This document shows, one piece after another, positions 1,385 to 23,503 of a DNA stretch of 64,000 bases. Position 1 is the first letter of the stretch, and every line of letters begins with the position of its first letter. The translations under genes were made by a program, and so were the position numbers. Origin of the DNA: Naegleria gruberi (Eukaryota); the NCBI GenBank assembly GCA_000004985.1, contig GG738846.1; one strand, written 5' to 3'. The notes under the pieces are model-generated. The model had not been told where the DNA came from. It was given only the letters and a program-made list of their open reading frames with translations, and made no database searches.

Positions 1385-3033
1385 GAGGATTTTAATTGAT
1401 CGCGAATCATTGTAAAATTAGGCTGCCTCTTCCTTTGACAAGGACATAATCTTCTTGTTCCTGAACCTGGTTCAGGCCTATTTTCACATTTAAACCTACT
1501 TGGTCTATAACCTATTATACATTCATTACTCAAAGCATCAATACTTGGAGAGATTGAGTCACCCTCTGTTGTTTCAACTTTACAAATACATGGTCTATTC
1601 ACTACTTTTGACAGCTCGTCACAATGATTAATGTAAGGGAAAAACTCAGGACTACACGTAGAATAAGTATGTCCGCAACAAGTTGTACAATCCTCATCTG
1701 CATCACACAATATGCTTTCAACATTTTTCAATGTGGCAAGATTATATTTGTGAGTAGGAGTTTTGATTGGCATTTCGTAAATATCATGCGTTATAGATCC
1801 TTCCTTTGATTCTTTAGACTTTTTACAAGGTGAGAATAATGAATCTGGACAATTATTCAAATCAAAATTGTGCAATAAACCAGCATGCACAATTGTCTCG
1901 TAACAATGAGGAAATCCAATATTATATTGATTCTCAGGTCTATTATTGCCTACAGCAGATATCAGCCCAATGTGTTGCATTAATTGGAATCGATAAGTGT
2001 ATAATTGCCTAGATTTGAAATGCACCTTTCCAAAATTATTCTTCCTATCAAGAAATTCCTCAATCAGAGCATCAATTGGAAAATCTCTAAATCCATACCT
2101 TTCACACATTTTAATTATTGAAGGAATGTCTCTCCTCTGTACAATAATTCCATTTAATCCAAATGAAAATCTAATACCAGAATATTCATCCCTATTCGAA
2201 GCCAAATTGAAAACATTCACCAAATGAGATGACAAGTCGTTACAGATCATAAAATCATCCTCCATCAATATTACATTCCTATCAATATCTGAAACTGCAA
2301 CAAACATTTTAAGCATATCATAGAAATTATTGGCATGATTTCTCTTTTTAGCATTCAACAAGTGAGATGTGAAAATTGAACTTGCTATTTGATTTTCCAG
2401 AATTCTAAATCTTCCAGAATTGAGAATATGTTCTGGTATGGCAATTTCCAATTCCTTCCTCATATCAGGTAAATTATTAAAAACTGTGATACATGGTTTG
2501 AAAATGGTTCCTTCCAATTCATTGTAAATACTCGAAACTGAAGACGAAAGATAAGAATATTTAATATCCGTTCTTGGATAGGTTAGTATCAAGATATCTA
2601 CTGCACAATCATGAGCTGTCCACTGTTTTAAAAGTTTCCTTTCGGAATTTGTTTCTTCAAATTCAGGTTCTTCGTAGAGTTCTGCTGTCTCTTCTTCCAT
2701 TTCTTCGTCTTCATATGAAGAAGATGATGATTTGGATAGGTTGTTAGTTTCTTCCGATATTTGATGTTTTATGTTACCTCTCTGGGAATGTGAATTTCCG
2801 AGTTTAGTGTGGTCGAATGTATTCGAAACTTCTAGATAGAGTGCCTTCATAGCAGCAAACTTTTCAACTTGTTTAATGTTGAATAGTAAATTAAACACAA
2901 ATAAACAACCCATTATCGTCAATAATACTAATACGAAACATTTCGTTCTATGACTCCACAGCATTTTTTTTGTTCCAAACCAAAACATTAAAACTCCGCA
3001 AATGTAAAGATGATGGAATCCAAGTAATCTCAT
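1381..3033 (-). CDS. Type II membrane protein with a Cys-rich C-terminal region; possible DxD-type glycosyltransferase (function uncertain)
   Basis: 550-aa ORF. N-terminal hydrophobic anchor (LLTIMGCLFVFNLLF). Acidic stretch, then a globular region containing 'LMEDDFMI' (DxD-like), then a C-terminal Cys-rich segment. Stop overlaps the convergent upstream gene by 4 nt. Confidence 0.5.
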   Translation of the reverse strand: MRLLGFHHLYICGVLMFWFGTKKMLWSHRTKCFVLVLLTIMGCLFVFNLLFNIKQVEKFAAMKALYLEVSNTFDHTKLGNSHSQRGNIKHQISEETNNLSKSSSSSYEDEEMEEETAELYEEPEFEETNSERKLLKQWTAHDCAVDILILTYPRTDIKYSYLSSSVSSIYNELEGTIFKPCITVFNNLPDMRKELEIAIPEHILNSGRFRILENQIASSIFTSHLLNAKKRNHANNFYDMLKMFVAVSDIDRNVILMEDDFMICNDLSSHLVNVFNLASNRDEYSGIRFSFGLNGIIVQRRDIPSIIKMCERYGFRDFPIDALIEEFLDRKNNFGKVHFKSRQLYTYRFQLMQHIGLISAVGNNRPENQYNIGFPHCYETIVHAGLLHNFDLNNCPDSLFSPCKKSKESKEGSITHDIYEMPIKTPTHKYNLATLKNVESILCDADEDCTTCCGHTYSTCSPEFFPYINHCDELSKVVNRPCICKVETTEGDSISPSIDALSNECIIGYRPSRFKCENRPEPGSGTRRLCPCQRKRQPNFTMIRDQLKSS

Positions 3034-3479: not shown

Positions 3480-4640
3480 TGGCATTTAATGATACACTTG
3501 TAAATAGAAACTTTCCTTTCCAATAAATTATAGATTCGATAAAAAAGGTAATCCAAATTCTCTTTGTTTACAATTTGTATAGCTCCCAACTAACAACTGT
3601 CATGATGGATTTCCATGATTCGATTGTTAATGTCCACTGTAATTCCACTAAAGTCAATCAACTCTTCCTTATTTGTATTCAATATCAAATTAAGACTCCC
3701 ATTCAACAATTACAAAATTACAATTGCAACAAAGTATCACAATGAGAATCCCTCATTTACATGTCCTTTAGCATAATCTTCCAATCTTACATTTCAGATC
3801 TGAGCAATAATTTTCTTACATTCCAATTGCATCTATTAAGGAAATGAATATTCTTTAAGAATCTCCGACACAACACCTCTAACGAAAAAAACCCTTAAAA
3901 CCCAACCGCTGATTAGTTGAACTAGACATTTGATACAAAAAAACAACACCAACAATATAAGAAGAACACACACATCAACAGTGTTTCTTTTATCCACCCT
4001 CTCTTACTCTATATTTTTACTTTAAAGAATATTCTTAATAGATAGACATGATGTTGAACAATAACAAGTTCAAGTATAACAAATTTTCAATTGTTGATTT
4101 TTCAACAGCAACCAATAATAATAATGATAATCATTCGACAAATCAAATACCAAAGAAGAGAGGAAGACCTTCAAAGAAGAAATGCACTACAACAACTGGT
4201 GGTGCTGCTCAAATGATTGTCAGATCGACAGAATTATTCAATACACAACAACACACATTTTCACCTTCCAAATTACAACCCTATGAAAATGAATTGAAAC
4301 AATTTTTCAATGAATTTTCACCAATTTTGAACAAGAAAAGAAAAATTGAAAAGAAGAAGAAACATTGTCAATCCATTACAAAATGTAATAGAGAAAATAA
4401 TAGAGAAACATTGAGTGAAGAAACTAGATCGAATCAATCCTTATCAAATTCATCCATTGATTCCATCACTCCACTTTTAACTTTCTCAACAATATCATCC
4501 TCAACTAATTCAATCAATAATTCTGTAATATCACCATTGCCACCATCTTTATCGTCCTCATCATTTGATTTGCCAATTAAGAGAAAAATAATAAGAACTT
4601 CAATATCAATAAAAGAATTATTAAATTAATAATCATGAAT
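3480..4640. repeat. Left arm of a large inverted duplication (carries AT-hook gene copy A plus about 570 bp of its 5' flank)
   Basis: Reverse complement of 17675..18720 aligns by eye with 3480..4640. Identity is about 90–95% over 3861..4629 (e.g. 'atctccgacacaacacctctaacgaaaaaaacccttaaaacccaaccgctgattagttgaactagacatt' on both arms). The outer ends are more diverged. Confidence 0.8.
4048..4629 (+). CDS. Small AT-hook protein (PKKRGRPSKKK) with conserved C-terminal 'IKRKIIRTSISIKELLN' tail; paralogue A
   Basis: 193-aa ORF with an AT-hook core (RGRP flanked by K/R), N/S-rich. About 95% identical in protein to the inverted copy at 17688..18257. Confidence 0.7.
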   Translation: MMLNNNKFKYNKFSIVDFSTATNNNNDNHSTNQIPKKRGRPSKKKCTTTTGGAAQMIVRSTELFNTQQHTFSPSKLQPYENELKQFFNEFSPILNKKRKIEKKKKHCQSITKCNRENNRETLSEETRSNQSLSNSSIDSITPLLTFSTISSSTNSINNSVISPLPPSLSSSSFDLPIKRKIIRTSISIKELLN

Positions 4641-5152
4641 GTGATGGTCAGCGGCATGTGTTGCAAACGAAATGGAATTTTAAATTGTGTGACATTTGAA
4701 TAATTTGGATAATTTGGCAATTATAAGGAATAGATTGAGAACCAAGGAATTTAATGATGTTGTTAATTGGATGAAAATTGGTAATTTTAAACTCTAAATA
4801 CGGATTCTATTTCTAATAAATAGAGAGAATATGAACAATGATAAATTTCATGATTTGTAACCAACCATGTTTGAACCATCTCTTTGTATTTTTGGAAAGT
4901 GTGGAACACCAAGTTGACCAATATTCGATTACAACATCCAATTTAAGATTTTGAAAGGACAAATTAGTAGAAGCATGATCTCCTTCTCAAGAATCCTATT
5001 TTTTTAAAGGTCGTTCCTTTCTAAGTTGGTGGTGAATATTCACACAATATTCCTTCGGCATCTGTCAACACGATAAATTCGACCTAATGAATGTGGTCTG
5101 CCTTTTAATTTTCAAAAAGAAACAAAACTAAACACTAGCAACCAACAAAACC

Positions 5153-5692
5153 ATGACAAATTATAACAAGTTTTCCATCATTGAATTTACATCAAATTCT
5201 AACTATCAACAACACTCCAACAATAACTCAACTACATGTCAGAATTCAACACAACAAAAAGAACAACCAAAGAAAAGAGGAAGACCTGTCAAAACATCCA
5301 CATCTACTACTAATAATAACAATACACACATGATGATTGTAAAATCCACTGAAATGTTATCTACACATGTGTTTTCACCTTCCAAATTACAACCTTATGA
5401 ACATGTATTGACTCAATTTGTTACATGTGATTTTTCGAAAGCTCAACAACAACAATCCATGATTTCAAAAAAGAAGAAACAAGTGAGAAGGAATCAAAAC
5501 AAGGTGAATTGTTCAATAGAAAATGAATACTCTTCAACTTCAAATCAATCGAATGCTGACTCAATTGTACCATTATGCAATTTTCTTGCAACAAGCTCTA
5601 TACTTGATAATTCTAGATCTGAATTATCAAATAGCACTACAATGAAGAGGATTATCAGAACATCCATTTCAATAAAAGAATTATTAAATTAA
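5153..5692 (+). CDS. Small AT-hook protein (PKKRGRPVKTS), diverged tandem paralogue B of 4048..4629
   Basis: 179 aa. Same N-terminal 'KFSI(V/I)(D/E)F(S/T)' start, AT-hook, 'FSPSKLQPYE' block and identical C-terminal 'RIIRTSISIKELLN'. Confidence 0.7.
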   Translation: MTNYNKFSIIEFTSNSNYQQHSNNNSTTCQNSTQQKEQPKKRGRPVKTSTSTTNNNNTHMMIVKSTEMLSTHVFSPSKLQPYEHVLTQFVTCDFSKAQQQQSMISKKKKQVRRNQNKVNCSIENEYSSTSNQSNADSIVPLCNFLATSSILDNSRSELSNSTTMKRIIRTSISIKELLN

Positions 5693-5889
5693 TTATAAAT
5701 ATATTAATGTAAGATTGTGTGTAATTCAGCTAATGAAAAACTCGATAAGCACGATTTTCAAGTTTAATAATTATTTGTACAAGATTTATTGGACTATCAA
5801 TTCGCTACAAACGAATTGATGTCTTTGAACTTAGTGTGTAGTGTTGTTGGTGTTGGTTTGTTGTGAGTGTTTGTGAAATTGACTGTTAT

Positions 5890-6879
5890 CTAGTACTTGG
5901 ATTTGTCGACATCATCAAAGAATGGATGTTTGAGGGCTTCCTTGGCAGAAATTCTCTTGTTTGGTTGGTATTCTAACATACGAGTGAGCAAATCAATACC
6001 ACAATCGTCCAATCTGCTACAGACAGCAGGTAAGTGATTCCCCTTCCACTTTGGGAATTTGTTATTGAAACTGGCGAAACCCTTCAAAGATGAAACACCA
6101 GGCCAAATTTCTTCATTAGGAGTACCAAGGTTTTGGAAGATCTTGAATAACATATCAATTTCAGAATCAGCTGGGAATAAGGCAGTACCATTAACCAATT
6201 CAGCAAAGATACAACCAATAGACCAGATATCAACAGGAGTAGAATACTTTTCACTTCCGAGTAAGATTTCAGGTGCTCTGTACCATAAAGTAACAACTTC
6301 GTGTGTAAGTTTACCACATGGCAATTGGAAAGCTCTGGCCAAACCAAAATCAGCCAATTTGAGCATCAAATCATTATCCTTAGTCTTTTGGACGAGAATG
6401 TTTTGTGGCTTTAAATCTCTGTGAATAATTCTAGCAGAGTGACAGAAAGCAATACCCTTAAGAGTTTGATAGAGGCAAGACTTGATCATGCTCATTGGAA
6501 TTGGTATTCTCTTCTTCTTTTCACCTTCAATTCTCTTAAATTCGTTCATGTACTTCTTCAAATCCAATTCAATAAATTCAAAGACTAAATGTAAATTATC
6601 ATCACCATGAATAACTTCGATCAAATTAACGACATTTGGATGATGCATCTCCTTCAACAAGGAAATTTCTCTGATGGAGGTACTTGGTACACCTTCATCT
6701 TCATGTTCTAAACGGATCTTCTTGATGGCTACAACATTCTTATTAGTAAGATCAATTGCTCTATATACAACACCATAGGTACCTTCACCTAATTTATCTT
6801 GTCTATCGTATCGGGCAAGACCCTTTGCTGCAGCAGAGAAGTGTTGTTGCTGTTGTTGTGGTAGGGACAAGGAAGTCAT
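5890..6879 (-). CDS. Cyclin-dependent kinase, CDK1/CDK2 (PSTAIRE-class) family; PSTAIRE variant 'PSTSIRE'
   Basis: Single exon, 329 aa. GEGTYGVVY glycine loop; '[29 protein letters not shown]' is near-identical to the CDK1 PSTAIRE helix; HRDLKPQN; DFGLAR; the segment from [10 protein letters not shown] onward. Q-rich N-terminal extension. Confidence 0.9.
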
Positions 6880-7193
6880 AATGATGGAGGATGGAAGGCT
6901 TGATTTGTTGTTGGATTTTTTTTTTGCTGTGATGTGTTTTGAAAATGTGTAACGGTTTGGGTTTTATATTGGCGCGAGTTACAATACGTAACGGTTTTTG
7001 AAAAGCAGTTCGTTGCAGACAGTATTTTGTTGTTTTGAAAATTTTGATGCTTTTTAATATGTAACGGTTGCTGTATGGATTAGTAGGCTCACAAAAGGTT
7101 CTTTCTCACTGGTCCGTATCTTCAAGGATATAATATTCGACTCTTGATCAAGACAGATAATTATTTACAAAGTTTAAGAGATGATGAATATAA

Positions 7194-7970
7194 TTACTCA
7201 TCATCTTCATTATTCTGACTCGTCATTTCAACACTTGTTCGTTCTCTTCTTGATGACGAATCAATTTCATCCTCGTTATAAGTATTTGCATTATTATTGA
7301 ATGGTTGATTCAACTTCTCCCTTCTTCTCTTAATAAGACAACAATAGACAGCCATTGCAGCACTTATCAAACAACAAATACACAACATGATGAGAATAAT
7401 CAAGGCAGCAATAGCATAATTTCTCAATCGGATTGAATTATCACCCGGATACTTGATTTCAACAATCATACCAACAACACTTCCCGAATCAAGACGACAC
7501 TTTGCTTGAAAATCAAAAGAAGTACAACTTTCAATATCAAAATTAATAGCCAAATCAAATTCATCATCATCTTGAATATCATCATCTAATTTAATACATA
7601 CAACAACACTGCTTGGTGTTAATGCTGATGAAAATTGACACAGATGATAATCATCCTTCACATGATAACAATGATTCAATACAATTTGATCAGAATTACT
7701 CCAATAGGAGGAAAGAGTAATCTGATTTGAAGAGGTAACAATCTGAACTAGTGAAACATTTCTTCCTGAACATTGTCCATCAAATCCATATAAATCTCCC
7801 AATAAAAGTGATCGGGAGGTGAAGGTGGAATTGTCTAGATTGTTGGTAGAGAAGGAAATTGCTTGATTGTGTGGTTGATAAATTTTAGATAACATAGAGG
7901 TTGGAAAACAGTGAATGGTTGATGCGATGAGCAAAATGCCAAACATCAAAGGTAAAGTGAATGATGACAT
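7194..7970 (-). CDS. Type I membrane protein of unknown function (signal peptide, Cys-containing ectodomain, one TM, acidic cytoplasmic tail)
   Basis: 258-aa ORF. N-terminal hydrophobic signal 'FGILLIASTIHC'. C-terminal TM 'AALIILIMLCICCLISAAMAVYCCLI' followed by 'KRRREK' stop-transfer. Confidence 0.55.
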   Translation of the reverse strand: MSSFTLPLMFGILLIASTIHCFPTSMLSKIYQPHNQAISFSTNNLDNSTFTSRSLLLGDLYGFDGQCSGRNVSLVQIVTSSNQITLSSYWSNSDQIVLNHCYHVKDDYHLCQFSSALTPSSVVVCIKLDDDIQDDDEFDLAINFDIESCTSFDFQAKCRLDSGSVVGMIVEIKYPGDNSIRLRNYAIAALIILIMLCICCLISAAMAVYCCLIKRRREKLNQPFNNNANTYNEDEIDSSSRRERTSVEMTSQNNEDDE

Positions 7971-8156
7971 TTTTTAGATGGCTGTTAATTGTCAGTTTGA
8001 TGTTTTTGAAGGGTTTTTTAATGTAATAAATGAAGATAACAATCTTAAACATTGCACAATAATGAATAAGTTTTCAACAAATTTTAACGCGCCAATTTTT
8101 ATCCAGTTGTGAGTGGAAATTTTCAAGGTATTTTTAGTTTAAAATTCTAGAAAAAA

Positions 8157-11100
8157 ATGTCACACACCACAACGAACGAAAATGTGATGACAGACGAAGA
8201 TCAAATTGTCAACATACACACTGTGGAAGTGGTTGATGAAGATGATAATTTATCTATAAATTCCGATACATTAAGAGCATTGGATGATGAACAAAATAAC
8301 GAAGAACAGCAGCAACAACAGCCTGCCGAATTAAATAATACACAAGAATTGTTGGATGATTTGGGAGGATTTAACGATGATGAAGATGTAAATATTGATA
8401 ATTATGAGGAAAAACCACATAGTAGAAAATACTCTCAAATTGAGGATGACGATGATGTATTGGAAAATTTGGATCTTACCGATCTTTCTCCGATTATTGA
8501 AAATCCTCTCAAGAAACAAAAATTCGATCAAATAGATGAAAATAATCGACCAGTAGAAACATTTGGATTTGTTTCTGCTAAATTAACTTCATCGAGTAAG
8601 GATGAAGAAAATATATCGAGTGAAAAACCACCTGCCACAGATGGTTTTGTGTCTGCTGCTTCAAATAGACCTTCAGAAACATTTGGATTTGTTTCAGCTT
8701 CCTCAAATAATAGACCTGCAGAGACTTTTGGATTCGTCTCTGCCAGACCACCTACAAAGTACACCTATCATCCAGAGGAGGACGATGAAAAACCAGCAGC
8801 AACTGAGGGTTTTGTTTCAGCAGCTCCATCAAAACGTCCACCAGAAACATTTGGATTTATGAAAGCAAATGGAGACAATTTTGAATCAGAAACTGAAGAA
8901 AATTATCAAATTAACAAACCAGCAGCAACAGATGGATTTGTTTCTGCCTCCACTGACAAGCCTTCAGAAACTTTTGGATTTATTTCAGCCTCTTCAAACA
9001 AACCACCTGCTACAGATGGATTTGTCACTGCAGGCAAAGATTCCAAAAAGTATACTTATAACCCTGAGGAAGACGAAAAACCACCTGCTACAGATGGTTT
9101 TGTGTCAGCTGCCTCAAATAATAGACCAGTAGAGACTTTTGGGTTTGTTTCTGCTAGACCACCAACAAAGTATACATATAACCCTGAGGAAGACGATGAA
9201 AAACCACCAGCAACTGAAGGTTTTGTTTCTGCTAAACCAAAAACTAAATTTGATTCACCAACTGAAATAAGGCCATCCGAAACATTTGGATTTGTTTCTG
9301 CCAGGCCGGCCTCCAAGTATACCTATCATCCAGAGGAGGACGATGAAAAACCAGCAGCAACTGAGGGTTTTGTTTCTGCCTCAAATAGACCTTCAGAAAC
9401 TTTTGGATTTGTTTCAGCCTCTTCAAACAAACCAGCACCAACAGATGGATTTGTATCCGCCTCGAATAGAACTAACGAAAATGAGATGGATATTTCAGAT
9501 GAAAGACCACCTGCCACAGATGGTTTTCAAAGCGCCCTAGATAGACCACCACCAACTGAAGGATTTTTGTCTGCATCTAATAGACCACCAGAGACATTTG
9601 GGTTTTTAAAGGCAAACACAAGCACTCCTGCCGAAACTGATGGATTTCAGGTTGCCAATAATCGTCCACCTGCAACAGATGGATTCGTATCGTCTAAATC
9701 GTCTAGTACTTTCAAAACTCCTTCAAAGAATAATGTAAATATTGAATTATCCACACCTAGTAATAATAGTGACATATTTAAAACACCAAGTAAGGTTGGT
9801 AGCTCACTTAATAAGAAAACACCTGCTACGAAGAGAAGTATAAAGAATCCATTTGCTTCTCTTACCACAGAGCAAGGTGACACTAAGAAGGAAACTCCTA
9901 CAAATAGAATCAATGAAACTGTAAAGAAAAAGCAAAAGAAATTTGTAACTCCAATCAAATCGAAGGAAAGTTTTGAAGAAGCTAAAAAACGTGAAAGTGA
10001 AAGGAGGTCAGCTTCCACTTCTTCTTCTTCGTCAATTAGTATCACAAAGAAAACTTCTGACACAACACCAATAACAGCACCAAGCTGGGTACCTGTAAAA
10101 CACCACAAATCTGATTCAAAGGAGGAAGTTCATGTAAAAAGAAGGATAAATACTTTGGGAATATGTGAACAGCTACCTATTGAGAAGATTAAGAGAGAGG
10201 GAGTATCCCAATATTCAATAACAATGACTAGCATTTCCGCCAAGACATTTAAATTTAATTTGAATGATTTCAAAGTATCAAATGAAATGATAGAAGCAAT
10301 AGTGAGCCTTAATGGAAACAAAAGAGTAGTGAATTTTGGAAGTGAAGAATATGAACGGTTATTAGTACATTTTGGTGCTAAAACAAGTGTTGTAAAAACT
10401 GATTGGGTTGAAAATCACTATAGGTGGATTGTTTGGAAATTGGCAAGTCTCGATAGGACATTCCCAAATGACAAGTCTTTTCCATTTTTGACTCCTGAAA
10501 AGGTTTTAGGACAACTAATTTATAGGTATAATGTTGAATTTTGTAAAGGAAAAAGATCATGTTTGAAAATGATTGCTGAAAAGGACATTCCTCCTGGTCA
10601 ATTCATGGTTCTGATGGTATCATCTTTATCAAATAACGATAACGATATGGAAGAATGTAAAACTATAGAACTTAGTGATGGTTGGTACAGTATGAAGGCA
10701 AAATTAGATGAACAACTATCCAGGTATTTGGAATGGTGCAAGATACGTATAGGTCAAAAATTGAGAATTGTAGGAGCATCTTTTGTTGAAAATTTTGAAC
10801 CTGCTCCTCCTTTGGAGTTGCCTGGAAATGCATGTTTAAAGCTGAGCATTAATGGTGTTAGAAAGGCTCACTGGGATACCACATTAGGATTCCAATACGG
10901 AAGAATGCCTTTCAAAGTTTCATTCAAATCCATTCAAAGCAATGGAGGAAATATTCCTTGTATCAGAGCCATTGTTAAAAGAGTGTATCCACAAAAGTTC
11001 TTGGAGAAAATCACTGACGAAAGTGGTACTGTCTCGACAATCATTAGAACTAAACAAGCTGAAGATTACATCTCTGCTATTAATGAGAAGGAAAGAGAAA

Positions 11101-12911
11101 AATTAATGGCTACACTTCAACCAACCTATTACGATGAAGAAAAGAAGAAAATTATTGGACCTAAGAAAAATATCACAACACCGATCAAGAGAATTTATGA
11201 GGGATCTGTTCTTTACAAGCTCTTATCAGAATGCAGAGATGAGTCATCATTTTATGCCCAATTGAATGAGACACAACACCAAAATTTAGAGAATTACCAA
11301 CGTAACATTGAGAGTGAGATTCAATCAAGAGTTTCTCAAAGATTAACAACCACTTTGGATCAACATCCAACTCTCAATAGAAATGTCTCTGCTATGGTAA
11401 CTGTTAGATTGGGTGATTGCTGTCCTTATTCGAAAAATCCTGGTGTAACGATGAACGATAAGGAAATGATTATTACGTTATGGATTGCAGATGAAGACAA
11501 TGAATCTTTTCAAGAGGGAAATATTATTGACATTTATAATAGTAGATCATCCAAGCAAAGTGGAAGTCAAGTTATGAAGTCAATTTCAGCAATTTCTCAT
11601 ACTAAAGTGGAGATTGTTAAAAATTGGAAGGACTTGACAGATGAAGAAATGAAGGTCTATAGCTATGTACCAAGAAGTTGTATCAATTTTACTCAGGTGA
11701 AAAATCCAGACTGCAGACAGCACAATAACGAATTCGATTTTGCAGGAATACTAGTTTATACAAAAGAAATCGAGCAGAGAGAAAAAGAAAGTACCCTAAA
11801 GTTACTCTACTTTGTAGATTCTACTTCTTTCAATATTTCAGAATCCTCATATTCTAAAAATCCAATAATTATGCAAGTTAGATATTATGAATCAAATAAG
11901 AAACAATTTAGATGGTTCCTAACTCCAGGAAAAGTTTATTATATGGCAAATGTTACCTATTCAGACTTTGATGAAACTAACAATAGAATCAAGTGCTTTG
12001 CCAATGAACAAACTTTCATTTCTGAAAGAGCAACCAAACAACATTTCAAGTCAGCATCCAGTGAAATTAATGCTTTCTTGAAAAACAATAGGGAAAAATG
12101 CCTTTCACTAGAAAGTGTTATCGACCAATTTTCATTTAGAGAGGAAGATTATACAACACCTCGAAAGTCAATATCAAGCAATAATGACATGGAGGATGAT
12201 TTCAGTCTTGACCAAGAAATTAATTGTAATCCAATTATTGATGGCGATCACCAAATTCAAATTACATTATTGGATGGAGGATACAATGTTATTGAGACGT
12301 ATGTATATCCAAAGGATAATAATATTAGCTACAAGAGAGCTGAGGATACATATTCTTTTTATGTAAAACTCTACATTGAAACAAAGGAAGAGTGTTATTC
12401 CATTAAATTTACAGAGGACATGTTTGACAAGCTTGCTAACTGTCTCTATTTTGAAGAGGCAAACAATGCAGGGTTTCATCAATTCAACTTGCAAGACATT
12501 TTACAGTCAGAAACCATACCAGAATGGATTAAAACTCTTGTAAGTGAGGGAAAGATCATACATGAAAATTATGAATCCAATGATTTCACTACAAGGGTTG
12601 AAGAAATTAGAATGAATTTATTCAATTCGAGGAATGTGGATACCATGACAAAATTAATCAGATCTATCATTGTTGGAACCAAATTTATTACCAATTTAGA
12701 GCAGTTAGAAAACTTTATCTATTTGGATTCAGTTCTTGTTTGCTCTCCTGAGGAATGGAATTATTTGATGCAACAATTCATCTCCACACTCAAGAATACC
12801 CTTTTCAAATTCAATATTCGTGGAAGTGATAAACAAGTTATGAACGTCACGTGTATGGTCAGAGATTTTGCATTGGACAATTTAGATCTAGAAGATATCT
12901 TATTAAATTAA
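8157..12911 (+). CDS. BRCA2: BRCA2 orthologue (homologous-recombination mediator): acidic N-terminus, about 21 tandem minimal FxxA (GFVSA) motifs, then BRCA2 helical domain and OB folds
   Basis: Single 1584-aa ORF. '[23 protein letters not shown]…[16 protein letters not shown]…' matches the human BRCA2 helical domain ([21 protein letters not shown]…PERVLLQLKYRYDTEI). '[16 protein letters not shown]…[12 protein letters not shown]' matches OB1 (LTDGWYAVKAQLD…VGQKIILHGAEL). Upstream repeated '[17 protein letters not shown]' motifs resemble the BRC core FxTASGK and the RAD51 'GFTTA' motif. Confidence 0.9.
   Translation: [1584 protein letters not shown]
8545..9715. repeat. In-frame tandem array (about 21 copies) of a 12–14-codon unit encoding '(E)TFGFVSAS…' and 'TDGFVSAS…' within BRCA2, plus four copies of 'KYTY(N/H)[11 protein letters not shown]'
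   Basis: Visible as repeated 'gaaacatttggatttgtttc(t/a)gc' and 'acagatgg(a/t)tttgt…gc' strings. It generates many spurious antisense ORFs (8528..9517). Confidence 0.85.
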
Positions 12912-13004
12912 TTAAGACCTTAAATCCAAACCTTTTTGCGTTTAACACATCCAGAAAATGATGGAATGAAATGGCGCCAAAACTAAAATAAAAAACACAA
13001 AAAA

Positions 13005-14021
13005 ATGCAAAGACTTTTTGTCCGTGTAGTTGCCGATGGTTTTCCTTCATCATCGTCATCTTATAATGATAACAATAATAATAACATTACTTTTCCATCC
13101 TCAACAACAAATCCTTCAACGATCAGTTCGTTACTTTTAGAGAGAAATCAATTTTATAGAAAGTTAGCCGGTGTAAATAGGTCCAACTCTACGTCTAAAT
13201 TGTTGGACAGAAACTTTTGCTGTATTCTTCCACATAATTTATCGCTTGGTGATGTCAAACAAACAATATGTAGACAATATCAATCGATATTTTATGATAA
13301 AGTTACGGAAGGTTTTGAATTTGACAATTCTGATGCCTTTACTCTTTCTCGTTTATATTCCGACTTGGGATTAGAGTTGGGCTTGTGGAATACACAACTT
13401 AAAGCTAGTGATATTTTCACTGATGAACAAGTAGTATTTGCCAAATTGGATTGTTCACGAAAACAAAAAATTAAACTGAAAGAAAAATATCAACAAACAG
13501 AACAATACCTCTCACCACCAGATAGTGATAAGGAACAGTCCAACACTGCTCTTTTTGAAACACCTAAAAAGAGAAAACCAACAAGTAATTTTTTAACACC
13601 TCAATCCAAGAAGAAAAAACCAATTACTCCACCAAGTATTACAAGTGGTGATGATAGTGATTCTTCTGTGAGTGATTCAGAAGATGAGGCAGGGGCTACT
13701 CGTCCAGTAACAAGTGCCACATTGAAACAAACAGCGGAGAATCCTATTGTAATTCAATCGGATGAAGAATCTGAAGAATCAGAAGAGGAAGAGGAAGAAG
13801 AAGAGACACCAGTCAAGAAACCACAACCAAAGAAGCAAGAATTAAAGCAGGAAACAAAGAAACCAGAAAAGAAACAACCAGAAAAAGAGGAATCTGAAGT
13901 TGAAGACTCTGAGGAAGAACTGAAATCAGATTCTGATAAAGATGTCATGACTCACAGATCAATACGCCAAATTCTTTGCAAATACCAAGCACTGGTTAAA
14001 GGCAAAGTTTGCTGGTGGTAA
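13005..14021 (+). CDS. Acidic Ser/Glu-rich (CK2-site-rich) then Lys-rich nuclear/nucleolar-like protein, unknown function; the C-terminus probably continues in the +1 frame to 14129
   Basis: 338-aa ORF. N-terminal globular region, long 'SDSEDE…EESEESEEEEEE' tract, K-rich tail. The +1 frame after 13944 is open to 14129 and encodes a non-low-complexity tail ('KHWLKAKFAGGKFKTESDLEDMKKAFSQLTKSHQTELLDLMATMKGQ'). Confidence 0.55.
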   Translation: MQRLFVRVVADGFPSSSSSYNDNNNNNITFPSSTTNPSTISSLLLERNQFYRKLAGVNRSNSTSKLLDRNFCCILPHNLSLGDVKQTICRQYQSIFYDKVTEGFEFDNSDAFTLSRLYSDLGLELGLWNTQLKASDIFTDEQVVFAKLDCSRKQKIKLKEKYQQTEQYLSPPDSDKEQSNTALFETPKKRKPTSNFLTPQSKKKKPITPPSITSGDDSDSSVSDSEDEAGATRPVTSATLKQTAENPIVIQSDEESEESEEEEEEEETPVKKPQPKKQELKQETKKPEKKQPEKEESEVEDSEEELKSDSDKDVMTHRSIRQILCKYQALVKGKVCWW

Positions 14022-14288
14022 ATTCAAAACTGAATCTGATTTGGAAGACATGAAAAAGGCATTTTCACAACTTACTAAATCTCACCAAACGGAATTATTG
14101 GACTTGATGGCAACCATGAAGGGCCAATAAACAAAATTTCTTTGGTTTTGTTGATTTGTGATGAAATTCGATTCAGTTTTAAATGGAAATTTACCAAATA
14201 TATCAAAACATCTATTCAATTCAAAACACTATTCAAAATATTAGAATAATTAGCTAAAGCAACTATTTAGATATTTTCCAAGAAGAAA

Positions 14289-15170
14289 ATGCATTCAAAC
14301 AACAATTATCAAACTTCTACAAACACCAATTCTATTCGAATTTGTATTCGATTGCTGTTTATAATTGCTCTCTTCTGTTTCTTTCAACTAACAACCGCAC
14401 TCTCCGAGCCTAACAATCACCATCCTAATCATAATCCTCATCACACCGGCGGAAGATCTGTGGACGAAAGGTTTTCCCTTCCTTCTCTAGCTGATTCGAA
14501 TATTTTCGAAAAACTCTTCAAAAAATTGGAACAAGCAATTGAAAATGTTGTAAACAATGTAACAACAAATATCAGATTTCAAGTTTCACAAGCCATTATC
14601 GACGTACTCAACAAGAATCAAATCACTGCAGTGACAAATAATGCCATGTCAGCAATCTCTCAAAATATTTCAACACTTCTCAATAATATTCCATTCAATC
14701 AATTATTCCAAAACTCATTACAATATTCCCAACCAATCATTAATCAAATGGCCCAACAATTCACTAATCAACAAGTTATTGAAACTGTCAAATCATCTCT
14801 CAAACAAAATGACATTGACTTTTCCACAATTGTTTCAGAAATTATCAATGCAACCATTACAAAACTATCTGAACCCCAAACCAAACAAGAAATCAATCAA
14901 ATTCTCAAATATTACGCAACACATGCAACAGATTCCATCCCAACTTGGTTATTAATTTTTTTTGGTTCAGTTTTAGTTTCCATTTTAATGATTCCTTCAT
15001 TGTTGATGGCAATTTTGTTGCAACAAGTTTTTCCAGTGAGGAAAATGAAATGGTATCAAAGAATTTTCATTAATAGATTTGGAAAGGCCAAAGTTTCTCA
15101 GCAGCAAACTATTAATGATGAGGAGGAAGAAAGGAGGCGGTTAGTTTACAATGAGAATATTCAACAATAA
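14289..15170 (+). CDS. Membrane protein of unknown function (N-terminal signal/anchor, Q/N-rich luminal region, C-terminal TM)
   Basis: 293-aa ORF. Hydrophobic 'LLFIIALFCFFQLTTALS' near the N-terminus and 'WLLIFFGSVLVSILMIPSLLMAILL' near the C-terminus. Confidence 0.5.
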   Translation: MHSNNNYQTSTNTNSIRICIRLLFIIALFCFFQLTTALSEPNNHHPNHNPHHTGGRSVDERFSLPSLADSNIFEKLFKKLEQAIENVVNNVTTNIRFQVSQAIIDVLNKNQITAVTNNAMSAISQNISTLLNNIPFNQLFQNSLQYSQPIINQMAQQFTNQQVIETVKSSLKQNDIDFSTIVSEIINATITKLSEPQTKQEINQILKYYATHATDSIPTWLLIFFGSVLVSILMIPSLLMAILLQQVFPVRKMKWYQRIFINRFGKAKVSQQQTINDEEEERRRLVYNENIQQ

Positions 15171-15643
15171 ATAAATGTATATAATATGTGAAACAATTAG
15201 AAGTATCCAATAGAAAAACAAGAATCGACTTGCTTCTATTTTACAGCAACAGAAAGAAAAAAAGACTACAGCACCACAGGTTCCCAAGTTGTCTCCAACC
15301 TCAGTACTGATGTGGCTCTACGATGCTTAACTTCTCAAATCGAGCGAGATGAGGTGCATTCATCGTGATATGGCCGTAGCCATTCAATACCTTAAAATCT
15401 TAATACTGAATAAGATTGCCTTTCGTGCTTTTTTTGACTCAACAATATTGTCAACAGAGTTAATTTATTAATTTTTTTATTGTTCTGAATCCTCTTCATT
15501 GAAGTGCTATTTGATAATTCAGATGTTAATGATGGAAAATTTGTTATAATTTGTCATGTTTTGTTTAATTATAATAAACAGTTCGAAATGATATTTAATC
15601 CAGCATGATAGGATTCTTGATAACGAATGTATATATATATATA

Positions 15644-16762
15644 TTACTTTCTAACACCAACTGGATGAGGTGCTTTGGCTGTGTAGGATTCATCCAAATA
15701 TTTGACTTCCTCAGTGGTGAGTTCAATATCCAAAGCAGCAATAGACGATTCAATATTCGATACTTTTGTGGCACCAACAATTGGACTGGTAACTCCTGGT
15801 TTCTTCAATAGCCAAGCAATAGCAATTTGAGCTGGTGAGACATTCTTCTTATTAGCCAATTCTGAAACTCTTCTCAAATTTTCCTTATCACCTTCAGTCA
15901 GGGTTTCTTGGAATTGTTTTTGAATGAAATCTGAATTTGCTCTCTTGGATTTCTGATCCTCATCATCATCATTGCTTGTTTTCTCAGAGTTGACAAATTC
16001 GTGAGCTCTTGCCAAAATTCCCTTAGCAAGTGGACTATATGGAGTTAAGGAAACTTTCTGATCCAAACACATTGGAATCATGTCTCTTTCCTCTTCTCTA
16101 TACATTAAATGATAGAGATTTTGCATGGAAACAAACTTGGTCAATCCCTTCTTATCAGCATAATGTTGAGCTTTAGCAAATTGCCAAGCAAACATTAAAG
16201 AGGCACCAATATATCTGATCTTTCCAGATTTTACCAAATCATGTAAAGTTTCCATGGTTTCTTCAATAGGAGTGTCTGGATCCCAACGATGAATAATATA
16301 TAAATCAATGTCTGTTTACAATATTCAGTCAACTGAACTTTGCAATTTTCAAAAATACTTACAATCAGTTCCCAATCTTTCCAATGATTCCTCAACAGCA
16401 TGCATAATATGCTTTCTCGACAATCCATGAGTATTCACCTTCTTATCATCACTCAACGGTAGGTACCTTTGTTCTCCACTCTTGTCAACCGGACCAAAAA
16501 CCTTAGTAGCAATAACAACTTCCTCTCTCGGAATGTTATTCTCCCTAATGAATTTACCCAAAATTCTCTCACTTTCACCATTCGAATAAAGGTTGGCAGT
16601 GTCGAAGAAGTTAATACCCAACTCCCAGGCCTTCTTGAGAATGATCATGGATTCTGGTTCTTCCAAAACCCAATCAAACCATTTTGGTGAGCCGAAACTC
16701 ATGCATCCGAGACAGATTTTGGAGACTTTCAAGCCAGTGTTACCCAAATTTTCATACTTCAT
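15644..16762 (-). CDS. Aldo-keto reductase (aryl-alcohol dehydrogenase / K+-channel-beta-like subfamily); two exons
   Basis: Exon 1 is 16762..16363 ('…GINFFDTANLYSNGESERILG…'). Intron is 16312..16362 (51 nt, gtaagt…aacag). Exon 2 is 16311..15644 and begins '(Y)IDLYIIHRWDPDTPIEETMETLHDLVKSGKIRYIGAS', the canonical AKR motif. Splicing restores one continuous AKR fold. Confidence 0.85.
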
Positions 16763-17674
16763 CTTACGTTTCTTCTAATTGTGTTGTTTGTTTGTTTTTT
16801 TATTGTTTTGTTAATTGTACTCTAGAGTTTCTTTTTAAAGGAAAGAGAATTTGTACGAAAGTGCGAGCGAGGTCTTTTTGAAAATGTACTCGTACTTTGT
16901 TAATAAGTTAGATCCATTTGTTCAATTGTTAGTTGGTTATACTGTTTGTACTTGCAACTAATCAATCCTTCTGTTGTAAACCAATTTAAACAAGTCGATT
17001 TCATTTTACAAACATTCGAAATTAGCAACTGATTGAGAGAGTAAGGAAAGAATGAAAAGTTTAAGTAATGGGAAGCTAGTGTCTAGAATCAATTCGCAAG
17101 TTATTGAAGAGTGATCACCATTTACAAAATCAAAGTTTCAATTGGATTTGCATCTAATTATTCGTTGCATGAAACAAAACAAAACTTGAGAAAAACAAGT
17201 CATAACTGATAACTAGCTGTCATGTCACACTTTTAATTTCACCTTATCAAGTGGACTGCAATCTTGTTGAGTGGAGGAACTTTGGGTGCCTTATTCTTCT
17301 TGTGGCCAACTATTAGATGATAAATTAGAAGGAGTGTAATAAATTGTAAAGTTTATCCACTGGAAACAATGTTTTGAATTATCATAACAGCAGGTTGTCT
17401 TGGATGGTGCAATATCGAATATTCATCCAATTAGTTTGCAATAGTTTCCAAAAATAAAAAGAGATTGTTCAAACACGACTGACATTGTTATGTAAATTGG
17501 ATGGAAAGAGGCAATTTTGAAATCTAAATGTGGATTACACATCTATTATTTATATGAACAATGAAAAATTTCATCACATGTCCAAAGCACCTCAGTTTCA
17601 CACATGAACCGTGGCTCTTCTTGTTGTTGTGGCAAAAACTTGAACGAAAAGGAGAGGGAAAATGGACCAAAGAT

Positions 17675-18720
17675 GATTATGATGACATTAATTTAATAAT
17701 TCTTTTATTGATATTGAAGTTCTTATTATTTTTCTCTTAATTGGCAAATCAAATGATGAGGACACAGAACAAATTGTATTCGAATTATTGATTGAATTAG
17801 TTGAGGATGATATTGTTGAGAAAGTTAAAAGTGGAGTGATGGAATCAATGGATGAATTTGATGAGGATTGATTCGATCTTGTTTCTTCACTCAATGTTTC
17901 TCTATTATTTTCTCTATTACATTTTGTAATGAATTGACAATGTTTCTTCTTCTTTTCAATTTTGCTTTTCTTTTTCATAATTGGTGAAAATTCATTGAAA
18001 AATTGTTTCAATTCATTTTCATAGGGTTGTAATTTGGAAGGTGAAAATGTGTGTTGTTGTGTATTGAATAATTCTGTCGATCTGACAATCATTTGAGCAG
18101 CACCACCAGTTGTTGTAGTGCATTTCTTCTTTGAAGGTCTTCCTCTCTTCTTTGGTATTTGATTTGTCGAATGATTATCATTATTATTATTGGTTGCTGA
18201 AGAAAAATCAACAATTGAAAATTTGTTATACTTGAACTTGTTATTGTTCAACATCATGTCTATCTATTAAGAATATGTTCTTTGAAAAAGTTTAAATATA
18301 GAGAGAGTGAGAGAGGGTGGATATTTAAAAAAAAAACACTGTTGATGTGTGTGTTCTTCTTATATTGTTGGTGTTATAATTTGTTTTTTTTGAATAATGT
18401 CTAGTCCAACTAATCAGCGGTTGGGTTTCTAAGGGTTTTTTCGTTAGAGGTGTTGTGTCGGAGATTCTTAAATACAATTATTGCTTCTATCTGATATTTA
18501 AGATTTGGTAATTTGAAGGTGTGATGTCGGAGATTCTTAAAGAATATTCATTTCCTTAATGGTTGCAAATAGAATGGATAAGAATCTTAATCATGATATA
18601 GAATATCAGATAAGGAAGAGTTGATTAACTTTTGTGGAACTATGGACATCCATGATGACAGTTATTAGTTGGAGCTATTATAAATAGAGAATTTGGATTG
18701 CCTTTTTTATCGAATCTCTA
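17675..18720. repeat. Right arm of the inverted duplication (AT-hook gene copy A' plus 5' flank); contains an internal local tandem duplication of about 60 bp around 18400..18560
   Basis: Reverse-complement match to 3480..4640. 'tgtcggagattcttaaa…' occurs twice within the arm. Confidence 0.8.
17688..18257 (-). CDS. Small AT-hook protein, inverted near-identical copy (A') of 4048..4629
   Basis: 189 aa. Differs from copy A by a few substitutions and one short indel near the C-terminus. Confidence 0.7.
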   Translation of the reverse strand: MMLNNNKFKYNKFSIVDFSSATNNNNDNHSTNQIPKKRGRPSKKKCTTTTGGAAQMIVRSTELFNTQQHTFSPSKLQPYENELKQFFNEFSPIMKKKSKIEKKKKHCQFITKCNRENNRETLSEETRSNQSSSNSSIDSITPLLTFSTISSSTNSINNSNTICSVSSSFDLPIKRKIIRTSISIKELLN

Positions 18721-19121
18721 TTGTTTATTGGGAGGTAATAATATACAAACTCAATTTTATATCAAGTACAACTTATCAATTTGGAAGAGAGGACAATTAG
18801 GAAAAATTAATTGAATTTATTACTTTTTAAACTTATTACCATGGTAACCTCTTTGATAGCTAATAGTGACACAATTTCTCAAGTACTTTGCAATGGACGA
18901 TTCATCTTTGAGTATCATACAACCTTCCAAACTCTTCCAATGATAGATTACTATATTGTTCTACAATATTTCTCAAAAAGAAAACATGAAACATGATTAA
19001 TTTACACGAAACTTGGTTGGCTTCCCATGATTTTTCACATCTTTCAGAGTCTGATTCGTTCAATCTGGATAATTGAGGATACATCTTGATTACCCATAGA
19101 GCATTTCTGATAGAAGTTTCC

Positions 19122-20840
19122 TCAACGATGGATTTCTTTACAGCTCCAGGTTAGTTTGCTTTCGCCTAAAATTGAAAGTTTTGGAAGAAATTCACCAAGG
19201 TTTGGACAAGAAGATTTCAATCTCTCCTTTTCTGTGTTGTTAAATTGATTAACTTGATGCTCGAAACGTTTAACAATTCTAGGAAACTTTTCACTTAAAT
19301 AAATTAACCATCTATGGAAATACATATAACCATACAATGCCTTAATTGAGGCATGAGTATTACCCTTCATGATTTCAACGACCATAGAATTCATCAGCTT
19401 ACACATGAGATCTGCATAAACGACCCAATTATCAAAATTTGGTTTCTCACAATGATTGTAAACTGTTGGATGAGAATTGTAAATTTCTTGAATTGACTTT
19501 TTCAATCTCTCAAAATTTCCATGTTTTCTATTAATGTAAATTGGAATCCAATGTGTGAATGTTGATCCCCAAACACTCTTTCTGACTCTCTCTTCATAAA
19601 ATGACTTTCTGGAGAGGAGATCGAGTGGTGAGGAGATGGAGGCAACTGTGCCATCTTTCTTCGTTTCGAATGAGAGACCAATACCAAGTATATCCTCCTT
19701 GAAACTTTCTTTCGAATGGTAACAAATTAATTCTCGTGCAGTGGAGAGAAGTTTGTACTCACACAATTCGAGGAGATGTTTGCTTGATTTTTCGACTTTC
19801 TTCAAATCAGAGTGAGTTAAATAGGTGAGAATGTGCAGGAGAATTTCATTTGGAATGTCATTGAATGAAGTGTTTGGAGCTTGAACTCCCTTTTCAACTG
19901 TGCCAACGTTGGTAGTTACATCAACACCAGTATCTTCTGTGAAGATAGAATTGACTAGCTCAGGTGCTGTAGAAGTGGAAGTAGTTACTGGAAGAGGTGT
20001 TGTTGCAGATTCATTTGTAAATTTAACGAAACCCATTTGATTTAGAATTTTGAGGAGGTAATTTTGAATATGTGAAATAATGGATACACTGTATGATAAC
20101 GGAGGTTCAACAGGAGTAGCTAATTCTTCCTTGATTTCTTCCTTTGGTTTAGTTTTCTTTCCAATATCTTCTTGTTCCATTGTTTCAACCTTGACAACTG
20201 ATTTCTTTTTCTTATTCTTCTTTGGCTTGCTAACTAGAGTACTAACTAATTCTTTCTCCTTCTTTGGAACAATAGCTTTCTTAACCACAATTGGTTTTGG
20301 CTCATATTTGGAAGTCAATATTTCATTAACATTCCAATGAGGAGCACACGGATAAACAACGCCATTGGAAGGATCGTGTCCAGTTTCATCAAACTTGAAT
20401 GCTCTGGAAAGCTCAATATCAGCTTGAATGAATCCAGCTTGTCTTTCTTCTTCCTCCAAGAGAAAAGATTGCAATTGAAGCAACACAGACAAACATGAAT
20501 AGCTTGTACTCCATCCCATGTAAGGAACTTGAGAAAAGTGATTACTCTCCAAAATATCCAAACAAATCCAACTTCCAAATACATGTGAGTGATGCAATCT
20601 GGTGAGACAATTAATAGTTGGTGGCTTATTTGGATAATCGAGTGGAAAATCAATTTCCAACAAGAGAATAATTCCACGATACTTGGAAGTTTTTGGAGCT
20701 AGCACAGTTGCGTACCACTTGAATAAATCTCCCTTGAATGGTTCTGCATAGACAGTTTCTAATGGATTCATTTGAATTTCTTTCAAATCTTTCATTAATC
20801 TTTTAAGAACTCGATCTTGCTTGTTGTTGTTTGATAACAT
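19122..20840 (-). CDS. Fusion protein: N-terminal ubiquitin-conjugating (UBC/E2) fold with non-canonical HPN motif, central F-box, C-terminal domain of unknown function
   Basis: 572 aa, single exon. 'PPTINCLTRLHHSHVFGSWICLDILE' aligns to the E2 active-site region (…YHPNINSNGSICLDIL…); Cys is retained and HPN is replaced by HHS. 'IPNEILLHILTYLTHSDLKKV' is F-box-like. Confidence 0.7.
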   Translation of the reverse strand: MLSNNNKQDRVLKRLMKDLKEIQMNPLETVYAEPFKGDLFKWYATVLAPKTSKYRGIILLLEIDFPLDYPNKPPTINCLTRLHHSHVFGSWICLDILESNHFSQVPYMGWSTSYSCLSVLLQLQSFLLEEEERQAGFIQADIELSRAFKFDETGHDPSNGVVYPCAPHWNVNEILTSKYEPKPIVVKKAIVPKKEKELVSTLVSKPKKNKKKKSVVKVETMEQEDIGKKTKPKEEIKEELATPVEPPLSYSVSIISHIQNYLLKILNQMGFVKFTNESATTPLPVTTSTSTAPELVNSIFTEDTGVDVTTNVGTVEKGVQAPNTSFNDIPNEILLHILTYLTHSDLKKVEKSSKHLLELCEYKLLSTARELICYHSKESFKEDILGIGLSFETKKDGTVASISSPLDLLSRKSFYEERVRKSVWGSTFTHWIPIYINRKHGNFERLKKSIQEIYNSHPTVYNHCEKPNFDNWVVYADLMCKLMNSMVVEIMKGNTHASIKALYGYMYFHRWLIYLSEKFPRIVKRFEHQVNQFNNTEKERLKSSCPNLGEFLPKLSILGESKLTWSCKEIHR

Positions 20841-21619
20841 TTTTTATGGCTTGCTTTTTGAATTTCTCTTTCAAGTTTCTGTATTTAAATGGATTTTAAA
20901 TATTTCAAATGCTTGATGAAGATTGGTATTTTCGAATTGAGGTTTCAAATAAATGGTGAACGTTGCAGATACAGTGACCCGTGTCATTACGGTGATCAAG
21001 GTGATAGGTATTTTCTAATGACACTCCCTCCATTTGAAAAATACTACTCTAAATGTTAAGAAATTAACTAAGGTTAAAAATTGAAATACAATAAATCCCT
21101 CCATCTAACCTTTAATTATTTCACTGGTCCATTCTTCCAAACTTCTACTGTATAATGCTACTTAATATCAAGTGATTTTAATTGTTTCATTTCACAAATT
21201 GATTTGGCTCCTTCATCATTTCACCAATATATGTGGAAATGTTTTTCCCGCTTTTTTCTAGTGCTCCCTCTTTAAAAGGACATATTTAGTTTAATACATG
21301 GTATAACATCTTGAATTTTACACGGGTTATTTCATATCATGTATACTATATCCTATTCATTTTTGAATATTTAATCTTTTGTTTTCATTGAGATAATTAG
21401 TGAGTTATGACATCATATACCTTTTTGGGAAAAGTGATTTTTCGCTCAACTACTTAATATCGAATATTGAATTTTGTGGTGGTAAGAGATAAGATCAGAT
21501 ACTAATACCATTTGTAATTTTTTTTACGAATTGTTGTGTATTAAGGAGGATATGCTTGGTTAAAGTTGGTGAATTTTTTTGTGAAATTAAAATAAAATGG
21601 AAGTTTATTAGAAGGAGAG

Positions 21620-22712: not shown

Positions 22713-23503
22713 AATGTTGGAAGAAACCTTTTCAAATCCTTCTTTGTTAAAATTGAATAAAGATGCTATCCAATCAGTTTCTTAATCCAACTGCTTAGCA
22801 GAGTATTTAGGTGTAAGGTTTTGGCCGTTGGATGGACTGAGTTGGCTTGATTGCTGATCTTGGCTATTTTGTTGGTCCTGTTGTGTACCTCCTTGGCTAT
22901 TTTGTTGATTGGAGGTAACAAAGCCATCGAGTGTAGCTTGTTTTTTGTTAGACGCCTCCAATTCTAACCGTTCATCCATACGAATATTTGGATTTTTTCA
23001 AGAATGCGTTCAAACACGCTTCAATAAACTTTTTTTTATTAAAGATTCTTGGCGTGAAACTTTCTTACCGGTTTCACATACATTTACAGGTTTGCGAGTT
23101 TGTTAATGTTGTGGACGAAGGATTTCAAACTTTTTTATCCTTCCAATTACTTGTTCAACTATTACTCTAACCTCCCAACCTCTTATTCCAATCTTCTTCA
23201 ACTTGATCCAACTTTTATTTATTCAATCAAACTCGAAGTTGTGAAGTTTTTTGTCCCAAATTTTCTTGTCATGAACGTTTCCAGAAACATTCTGTTGAGC
23301 AACTTGAAAGAGGCAACCATTAGAATTCATAATCAAAGAAGTTTTTCAAGAAACAGCGATTCCGGACCGGTCTCAATAATAGAAGTTACACGTTCACAGT
23401 GAACAGAATTTTATCATTTTTACAATCCAAACGGTTTTTATTGGCGGGAAGAGGGAGCATTCTATTGTTTGAGGGAGCATTGCAAAAAAGCGGCGTGAAC
23501 TTT

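Follow-up and report, generated by a model that had tools for sequence, protein, structure and literature searches.

The closest described system to the locus reported here is, by our comparison, the flip/flop region of Saccharomyces chromosome XIV. That region comprises 24 kb and 15 genes between 4.2-kb inverted repeats with two genes each, including the Centroid pair YNL018C/YNL034W, and its repeats undergo continual homogenisation by gene conversion and recurrent re-inversion (Salzberg et al. 2022, PMC9731477). We analysed a 64,000-nucleotide stretch of Naegleria gruberi contig GG738846.1 (assembly GCA_000004985.1), henceforth referred to as the window. In it, two inverted arms of about 1.1 kb, each encoding a small AT-hook protein (genes A and A'), bracket a block of ordinary genes that includes a cyclin-dependent kinase (CDK), a BRCA2 homologue and an aldo-keto reductase (AKR). 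The locus appears to follow the same logic as the yeast region in a more decayed state. We consider it probable that the arms derive from an old inverted segmental duplication, that the coding sequences (CDS) of A and A' were recently homogenised, and that both belong to a Naegleria-restricted family of disordered AT-hook proteins. The architecture is real but familiar, and nothing about it is unexpected in kind.

As in the yeast region, inverted repeats surround ordinary genes (about seven genes in 13 kb in Naegleria), and each repeat seems to have held two genes originally. The repeat genes belong in both cases to a fast-evolving, lineage-restricted and often duplicating family with no assigned biochemical function, and the copies would be held alike by non-allelic gene conversion, a mechanism that also yields inversions. 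The yeast repeats are near-identical from end to end and have sharp, conserved boundaries, whereas in Naegleria homogenisation covers only about 0.6 kb (one CDS) and decay has affected the remainder. Of the second gene pair, yeast keeps both members intact, and Naegleria has one of them as the relic B', so that the pair is half dead. Both orientations are documented in yeast, whereas the Naegleria locus is known from one assembled orientation; it has no known centromere linkage, and the two protein families are unrelated.

The encoded proteins resemble HMGA in being small, intrinsically disordered and basic, and their PKKRGRPxK core agrees with the consensus for AT-hooks. Unlike HMGA, they have one AT-hook and not three, lack an acidic C-terminal tail, carry terminal motifs of their own (KFS[IV]xxF and SISI[KR]ELLN) and show no detectable homology outside the hook. 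A second comparison is with proteins that carry the Groucho-binding EH1 motif, FS[VI]xx[IL][LM], or the Tup1-binding motif of yeast MATalpha2, IxIxxLL (Copley 2016, PMC4943189). The likeness is that the motifs stand in a disordered protein with a DNA-binding motif and that the C-terminal tail is predicted to form a short helix. Neither Naegleria motif meets the full EH1 consensus, however: the initial Phe is missing at the C terminus, and at the N terminus F and S, T or A stand in place of [IL][LM]. Terminal inverted repeat DNA transposons differ from the locus, which has no transposase or recombinase domain in the 15 ORFs scanned and no sharp repeat termini.

Inverted arms and their stepped identity

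Self-BLASTN of the window returned one strong inverted alignment (3520-4630 vs 18731-17687, E = 0), and a repeat scan recovered these arms independently, in blocks I1-I5 and I9. The duplication and its inverted orientation are real. An earlier note on this DNA had described the arms as 90-95% identical, with the identity beginning at the stop codons of the two genes. The inverted pair lies where that note placed it, with slightly different exact limits (Table 1) and an upstream part of about 530 bp. The identity figure holds for ungapped columns (about 93%); over all 1140 columns of the BLASTN alignment, of which 124 are gap columns, identity is 82.7%, and it is strongly stepped, not uniform. 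The stop codons do not mark the end of the similarity, as homology continues downstream in a 79% identical island (4868-4941 vs 17475-17400, E = 4e-11). The claim that the duplication took in an entire transcription unit is borne out, in inverted orientation and with about 530 bp of upstream sequence, the CDS and at least 310 bp of downstream sequence in the duplicated unit. Similarity restricted to the CDS, which the note had raised as the alternative outcome, was not seen.

The steps are pronounced. Identity between the arms is 98% over 4029-4522 and 100% over 4554-4630, and these segments are separated by a divergent in-frame indel patch that falls in a Ser-rich, low-complexity part of the protein. 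With the patch left out, the arms differ at 8 of 572 nt (1.4%) in this homogenised tract, and the longest perfect run between them is 221 nt (4106-4326). Upstream (3520-4028), the p-distance is 0.11-0.15 in the alignable blocks, and there are 11 gap events in about 530 bp; the whole upstream alignment has 90 mismatches in 430 aligned columns. On the other side, identity drops away within a few bases 3' of the stop codon, and the remaining downstream islands are 66-79% identical. One downstream block (4701-4858) aligns +/+ to 17432-17581 over about 150 bp (65.8%, E = 8.5e-15); this is opposite to the orientation of the arms and indicates a micro-inversion in one arm after the duplication. The outer ends of the arms are diverged and fade gradually, with no sharp edge. 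The window has about 33% G+C and contains no Ns.

We compared A and A' by the Nei-Gojobori method with the patch excluded and obtained a synonymous divergence (dS) of 0.019, from only 2-3 synonymous changes, and a non-synonymous divergence (dN) of 0.014. The adjoining non-coding flanks are diverged at 0.12-0.17 (over the whole upstream alignment, Fisher p = 9e-27), a level 6-8 times that of the synonymous sites. Purifying selection at the protein level does not explain the low dS. Intergenic DNA here is also not intrinsically about 7-fold faster, because the spacer between gene B and the CDK gene and the synonymous sites are similarly diverged between the NEG-M strain and a second strain (contig L001): the spacer matches in 181 of 198 columns, with 11 gap columns, and dS there is 0.03-0.07. 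Stepped identity and low dS together argue that the coding sequences of A and A' kept exchanging by non-allelic gene conversion, and so favour the homogenisation proposed in the earlier note.

The proteins of A and A' are nearly alike, as had been noted, and differ by 6 substitutions and the patch (about 92% identity by tblastn, 95% in a MAFFT alignment). Both genes appear to be unannotated. The diverged tandem copy, gene B, encodes a protein with 42% identity to that of A by BLASTP and 46-49% in multiple alignments. Three copies had been counted, and a fourth, the degenerate B', had been overlooked. This relic keeps the first 31 nt of B (30 of 31 identical, reading MTNYNKFSII and then a stop) and about the last 75 nt (matches of 35/36 and 22/25), and has lost the roughly 434 bp between them. 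The gene order is palindromic: A, B, the block from the CDK gene to a 5S rRNA gene, B', AKR, A'. Between A and B, dS is 1.77, dN 0.48 and dN/dS 0.27, which indicates that these open reading frames (ORFs) have been under long-term purifying selection and are real genes. The rapid evolution attributed to the family is visible in B, which between the two strains has a dN/dS of 0.39 and two in-frame indels; dN is 0 for the adjacent CDK gene.

Codon usage at the residues conserved between A and B varies along the genes. The same codon is used at 55% of them overall, at 13 of 14 in FSPSKLQPYE..L.QF.F (4258-4305 vs 5372-5419) and at all 7 in SIKELLN (4606-4629 vs 5669-5692). Such local codon sharing suggests micro-conversion or nucleotide-level constraint.

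Table 1. Features of the inverted arms and of the block that they bracket (window coordinates).
Feature	Coordinates	Strand	Evidence
Left arm: shared upstream region, gene A and stop codon	3520..4633	+	BLASTN, repeat blocks
Right arm	17687..18731	-	BLASTN, repeat blocks
Homogenised tract, from 19 bp before ATG to stop codon (-19 to +1 of CDS)	4029..4630	+	Arm alignment
Divergent in-frame indel patch within the tract (30 nt in A vs 18 nt in A')	4523..4553	+	Arm alignment
Decayed downstream part, left arm	4701..4941	+	BLASTN
Decayed downstream part, right arm	17400..17686	-	BLASTN
Gene A, 193 amino acids; N-terminal YNKFSIVDF, AT-hook PKKRGRPSKKK, C-terminal RTSISIKELLN	4048..4629	+	ORF
Gene A', 189 amino acids	17688..18257	-	ORF
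Gene B, tandem paralogue, 179 amino acids (NAEGRDRAFT_61743; XP_002682599, D2UYY1)	5153..5692	+	Identical protein
Relic B', B-type gene with internal deletion and premature stop	15458..15565	-	BLAST and motif scans
Bracketed single-copy block (13 kb between arms)	5890..16762	.	ORFs and RNA scan
CDK1/2-like kinase	5890-6879	-	Human CDK2, E = 3e-111; CDK1 and CDK2 about 1e-111
ORF	7194-7970	-	
BRCA2 homologue	8157-12911	+	Helical, OB1 and OB3 domains; BRCA-2_OB1, E = 1e-34
ORF	13005-14021	+	
ORF	14289-15170	+	
5S rRNA, complete	15263-15381	-	Rfam RF00001, 99.5 bits, E = 6e-21
AKR, two exons (NAEGRDRAFT_29714)	15644-16762	-	Domain match

A family of single-AT-hook proteins

We searched for relatives with a profile Hidden Markov Model on 1.84 billion representative sequences and with a profile search of a 5.8-billion-cluster collection. 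The family had been thought small and local. It is not local, as other N. gruberi scaffolds carry at least five additional members; four annotated ones are NAEGRDRAFT_82132, NAEGRDRAFT_73527, NAEGRDRAFT_76067 and NAEGRDRAFT_75105, and relatives outside NEG-M comprise P0001 and P0005 (ENA metagenome) and P0007 (Logan assembly, SRR25266754). Within NEG-M, the nearest relative of P0005 is NAEGRDRAFT_73527, at only 69% identity, even though P0005 comes from the same ENA sample as contigs that are 96-97% identical to NEG-M, and P0007 is 47% identical to NAEGRDRAFT_76067. These values would fit either a quick turnover of the family or the presence of several Naegleria lineages in the samples (contigs L002 and L003).

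No family match was detected in N. fowleri, N. lovaniensis, Willaertia or Acrasis, whose proteomes are present in the database, as the matches of an AKR search show; small ORFs may be unannotated there, as A and A' are in N. gruberi. A scan of JGI metagenomes with the family profile gave 424 pattern matches and no relatives. An exact 24-mer from the tail matched a single contig of 42% GC (L004), which we judged to be a chance match. Exact-protein look-ups of A, A', B and an AKR paralogue found none on record, and a literature search for Naegleria and AT-hook returned nothing relevant.

Four invariant motifs mark the family: the N-terminal KFS[IV]xxF, the hook P[KR]KRGRPxK, MxIxSTE, and the C-terminal RxSISI[KR]ELLN, which ends the protein. 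The hook motif is unvaried in all 10 members. The proteins are about 140-250 amino acids long, have a basic cluster, and are of low complexity and variable length outside the motifs. AlphaFold2, run on an alignment of nine sequences, predicted disorder throughout (predicted local distance difference test (pLDDT) of 51.6, predicted template modelling score of 0.14). The exception is the C-terminal tail, where pLDDT rises to about 77 and residues 188-192 are modelled as a short helix. As judged from sequence and its predicted structure, this is a Naegleria-restricted, previously undescribed family of intrinsically disordered single-AT-hook proteins.

The basic core of the family, R-G-R-P flanked by Lys or Arg, agrees with the AT-hook consensus TPKRPRGRPKK (PMC11354804). 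We consider it most likely that the proteins would act as nuclear adaptors, with the AT-hook tethering them to AT-rich DNA and the terminal motifs recruiting a partner. The C-terminal ISI[KR]ELL fits IxIxxLL exactly and matches four of the five defined EH1 positions; the N-terminal FS[IV]xxF[STA] fits three of the five, namely the first three. Chance matches are fairly frequent for short hydrophobic motifs. N. gruberi is reported to encode Tup-like as well as Groucho-like WD40 proteins, and the transcription-factor domains of Naegleria showed neither EH1 nor WRPW motifs, leaving these WD40 proteins with no motif-bearing partner found (PMC4943189). The likeness of the terminal motifs to EH1 and Tup1-binding motifs is a resemblance only, and any functional reading of it is speculative. 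A bolder proposal seems unlikely to us: that the family (A, A', B and at least five dispersed paralogues) supplies the partners that the Tup-like and Groucho-like corepressors lack, tethered to DNA and with terminal motifs of the EH1/MATalpha2 WD40-binding type, and that, separately, the A/A' pair makes the CDK-BRCA2 block a recurrently inverting flip/flop segment.

Duplication history and rival explanations

The palindromic order suggests that the original duplicated unit held both A and B, and this unit was probably the tandem pair A-B with its intergenic DNA. After the duplication, the flanks diverged by 11-15% and acquired many indels and the micro-inversion, and B' died with its internal loss; the AKR and 5S rRNA genes would have come to sit beside it. 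The indel-rich, diverged flanks and the internal patch may act as barriers that confine the conversion tract. Conversion intermediates of this kind could also end in crossovers, and the 13-kb block would then be inverted. The homogenised tract is a 0.6-kb inverted substrate that includes the 221-nt perfect run, and a crossover within it would flip 4.6-17.7 kb; inversion of the block is plausible.

Several observations weigh against parts of this account. AKR separates A' from B', whereas only 524 bp separate A from B, and no relic of AKR or of the 5S gene was found between A and B. Given this asymmetric spacing, a duplicated A-B unit calls for one more insertion or deletion, and B' might instead have arisen separately. 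A later insertion of AKR is plausible, given that AKR paralogues at least 96% identical lie on two other NEG-M scaffolds. The homogenised tract follows the CDS boundaries very closely, and cDNA-mediated replacement could have produced it in place of ordinary conversion. No A-type orthologue from another strain was found in the assemblies or protein collections searched, and A and A' themselves are absent from all protein collections searched. The function assigned to the family is read from short motifs only, and the putative chromatin or DNA-binding role named in the earlier note from the one AT-hook. Pfam gave no family for A, A' or B at E ≤ 0.01 and only a sub-threshold AT_hook at E ≤ 10; gene A scores 7.8 bits against AT_hook (PF02178), below the gathering cut-off of 17.4, and five of nine members match it with a best E of 0.01, also sub-threshold. 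A lone 13-residue motif seldom attains the Pfam AT_hook cut-off.

We weighed three other origins for the arms. The whole segment could have been duplicated in inverted orientation recently, at an age of about 2% divergence and with no conversion, the AT-rich flanks simply evolving faster by slippage and indels. The AT-richness and gap events of the flanks and the small number of coding differences, with only 2-3 synonymous changes, are what this would produce. The clean flank blocks, however, are 11-15% substituted against 1.9% at synonymous sites of the CDS, a 6- to 8-fold excess, the B-CDK spacer and synonymous sites changed similarly little between strains, and identity collapses right beside the stop codon. 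We therefore regard a recent duplication as quite improbable. The second alternative is an assembly artefact, either a collapsed or duplicated contig end, as raised in the earlier note, or two haplotypes joined head to head. It draws some support from the fact that the arms are uncovered by any independent assembly found, and from a second-strain contig (L005) whose homology to the window ends near 17402, exactly where the right arm has its inner edge. Against it, the arms are 17% different including indels, far more than the between-strain level of about 3%, so they are not alleles. They also have unique flanks (a glycosyltransferase family 18-like gene and B on the left, an ubiquitin-conjugating/F-box gene and AKR on the right), the window has no Ns, and the adjoining inner sequence is reproduced in independent contigs. 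We reject an artefact as extremely unlikely.

The arms could also belong to a large mobile element, as its terminal inverted repeats, or be the ends of a programmed invertible (flip-flop) switch cassette. Inverted arms of 1.1 kb around a 13-kb block, each coding for a putative DNA-binding protein, would suit such a design, and the boundary difference in L005 hints at structural polymorphism. No transposase, integrase or recombinase Pfam domain was detected in the 15 ORFs scanned, however, and the cargo consists of single-copy housekeeping genes (CDK1/2 and BRCA2) together with AKR. The outer ends of the arms are diffuse, the other family members are dispersed with no evidence of such inverted arms around them, and the B-CDK synteny is the same in the other strain. 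Both versions of this explanation are very doubtful. An old inverted duplication followed by conversion of A and A' is the reading that we retain.

Two contigs of the second strain (L001 and L005) lie inside the segment, and neither crosses an arm; among the assemblies found, no independent one spans an arm, and an exact look-up of the CDK returned only the contig already known. The two contigs reproduce the adjacent inner DNA at 96-97%, and L001 keeps the B-CDK synteny. L005 follows the window from AKR to about 17402, the inner edge of the downstream island of the right arm, and its last 37 nt have no similarity to it. We attempted to place this 37-nt end elsewhere in the window and found only a non-significant 15-nt match. 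The break may reflect structural variation between the strains, or the contig may simply have a broken end. At 205-495, L005 also holds 290 bp that the window lacks at about 17256 (L005 1-495 vs 17256-17440); the extra DNA resembles the 5' half of an ORF for a small hydrophobic product, and NEG-M retains only the 3' part of that ORF.

Neighbouring genes and biological meaning

The CDK, BRCA2 and AKR genes named in the earlier note were all confirmed (Table 1). The annotated N. gruberi proteins that correspond to B and AKR are both placed on one 1.0-Mb scaffold, which identifies the window as NEG-M nuclear DNA. The AKR exons correspond to ORFs at 15644-16255 and 16349-16762 (-), joined by a 51-nt GT..AG intron (16312-16362). 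The annotated AKR model (341 amino acids) leaves out 14 residues that are found in the continuous ORF and in the paralogues, and one of these paralogues, NAEGRDRAFT_73544, shares a 290,827-bp scaffold with the family member NAEGRDRAFT_73527. The 5S gene lies 78 bp downstream of the B' relic, and no 5S gene or relic was found at the mirror position near B. In the BRCA2 homologue, a short repeat with the pattern T[FDE]GF[VILMQ]x[AS] occurs 21 times at residues 135-513 (window 8540-9700; for example PSETFGFVSA and PPATDGFVSA), and 20 of the copies contain GFxxA. We take GFxxA to be a core of the FxxA type, similar to the one through which BRC repeats bind RAD51, in a copy number that is presumably unusually high.

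Outside the arms, the gene divergent from A (1381-3033, -) has a weak C-terminal match to glycosyltransferase family 18 (GnT-V-like, E = 6e-8). Just beyond the right arm, UQ_con (ubiquitin-conjugating) and F-box domains occur in a single 572-residue ORF (19122-20840, -), an unusual fusion. Tandem DNA repeats of 72 nt, with 70-91% identity among them, encode a leucine-rich repeat (LRR) protein of 573 residues (23444-25225, -; LRR_6, 11 stretches), and a repeat unit related to these 72-nt repeats occurs at 21156-21220. The sole tRNA in the window is tRNA-Lys(CTT) (38142-38214, -).

The locus adds two intact, selectively maintained genes whose products are not among the N. gruberi proteins of any collection searched, and it delimits a new Naegleria-restricted protein family marked by the four invariant motifs. 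It offers a clear case of probable interlocus gene conversion that is limited to coding sequence, and it is a candidate for inversion polymorphism. To our knowledge, a sexual cycle of N. gruberi has never been observed; conversion between A and A' is indirect evidence of active homologous recombination in this organism. Should the terminal motifs prove to bind WD40 proteins of the Tup-like or Groucho-like type, the family would be informative on how ancient this mode of repression is and would extend motif-mediated Groucho/Tup recruitment to an excavate.

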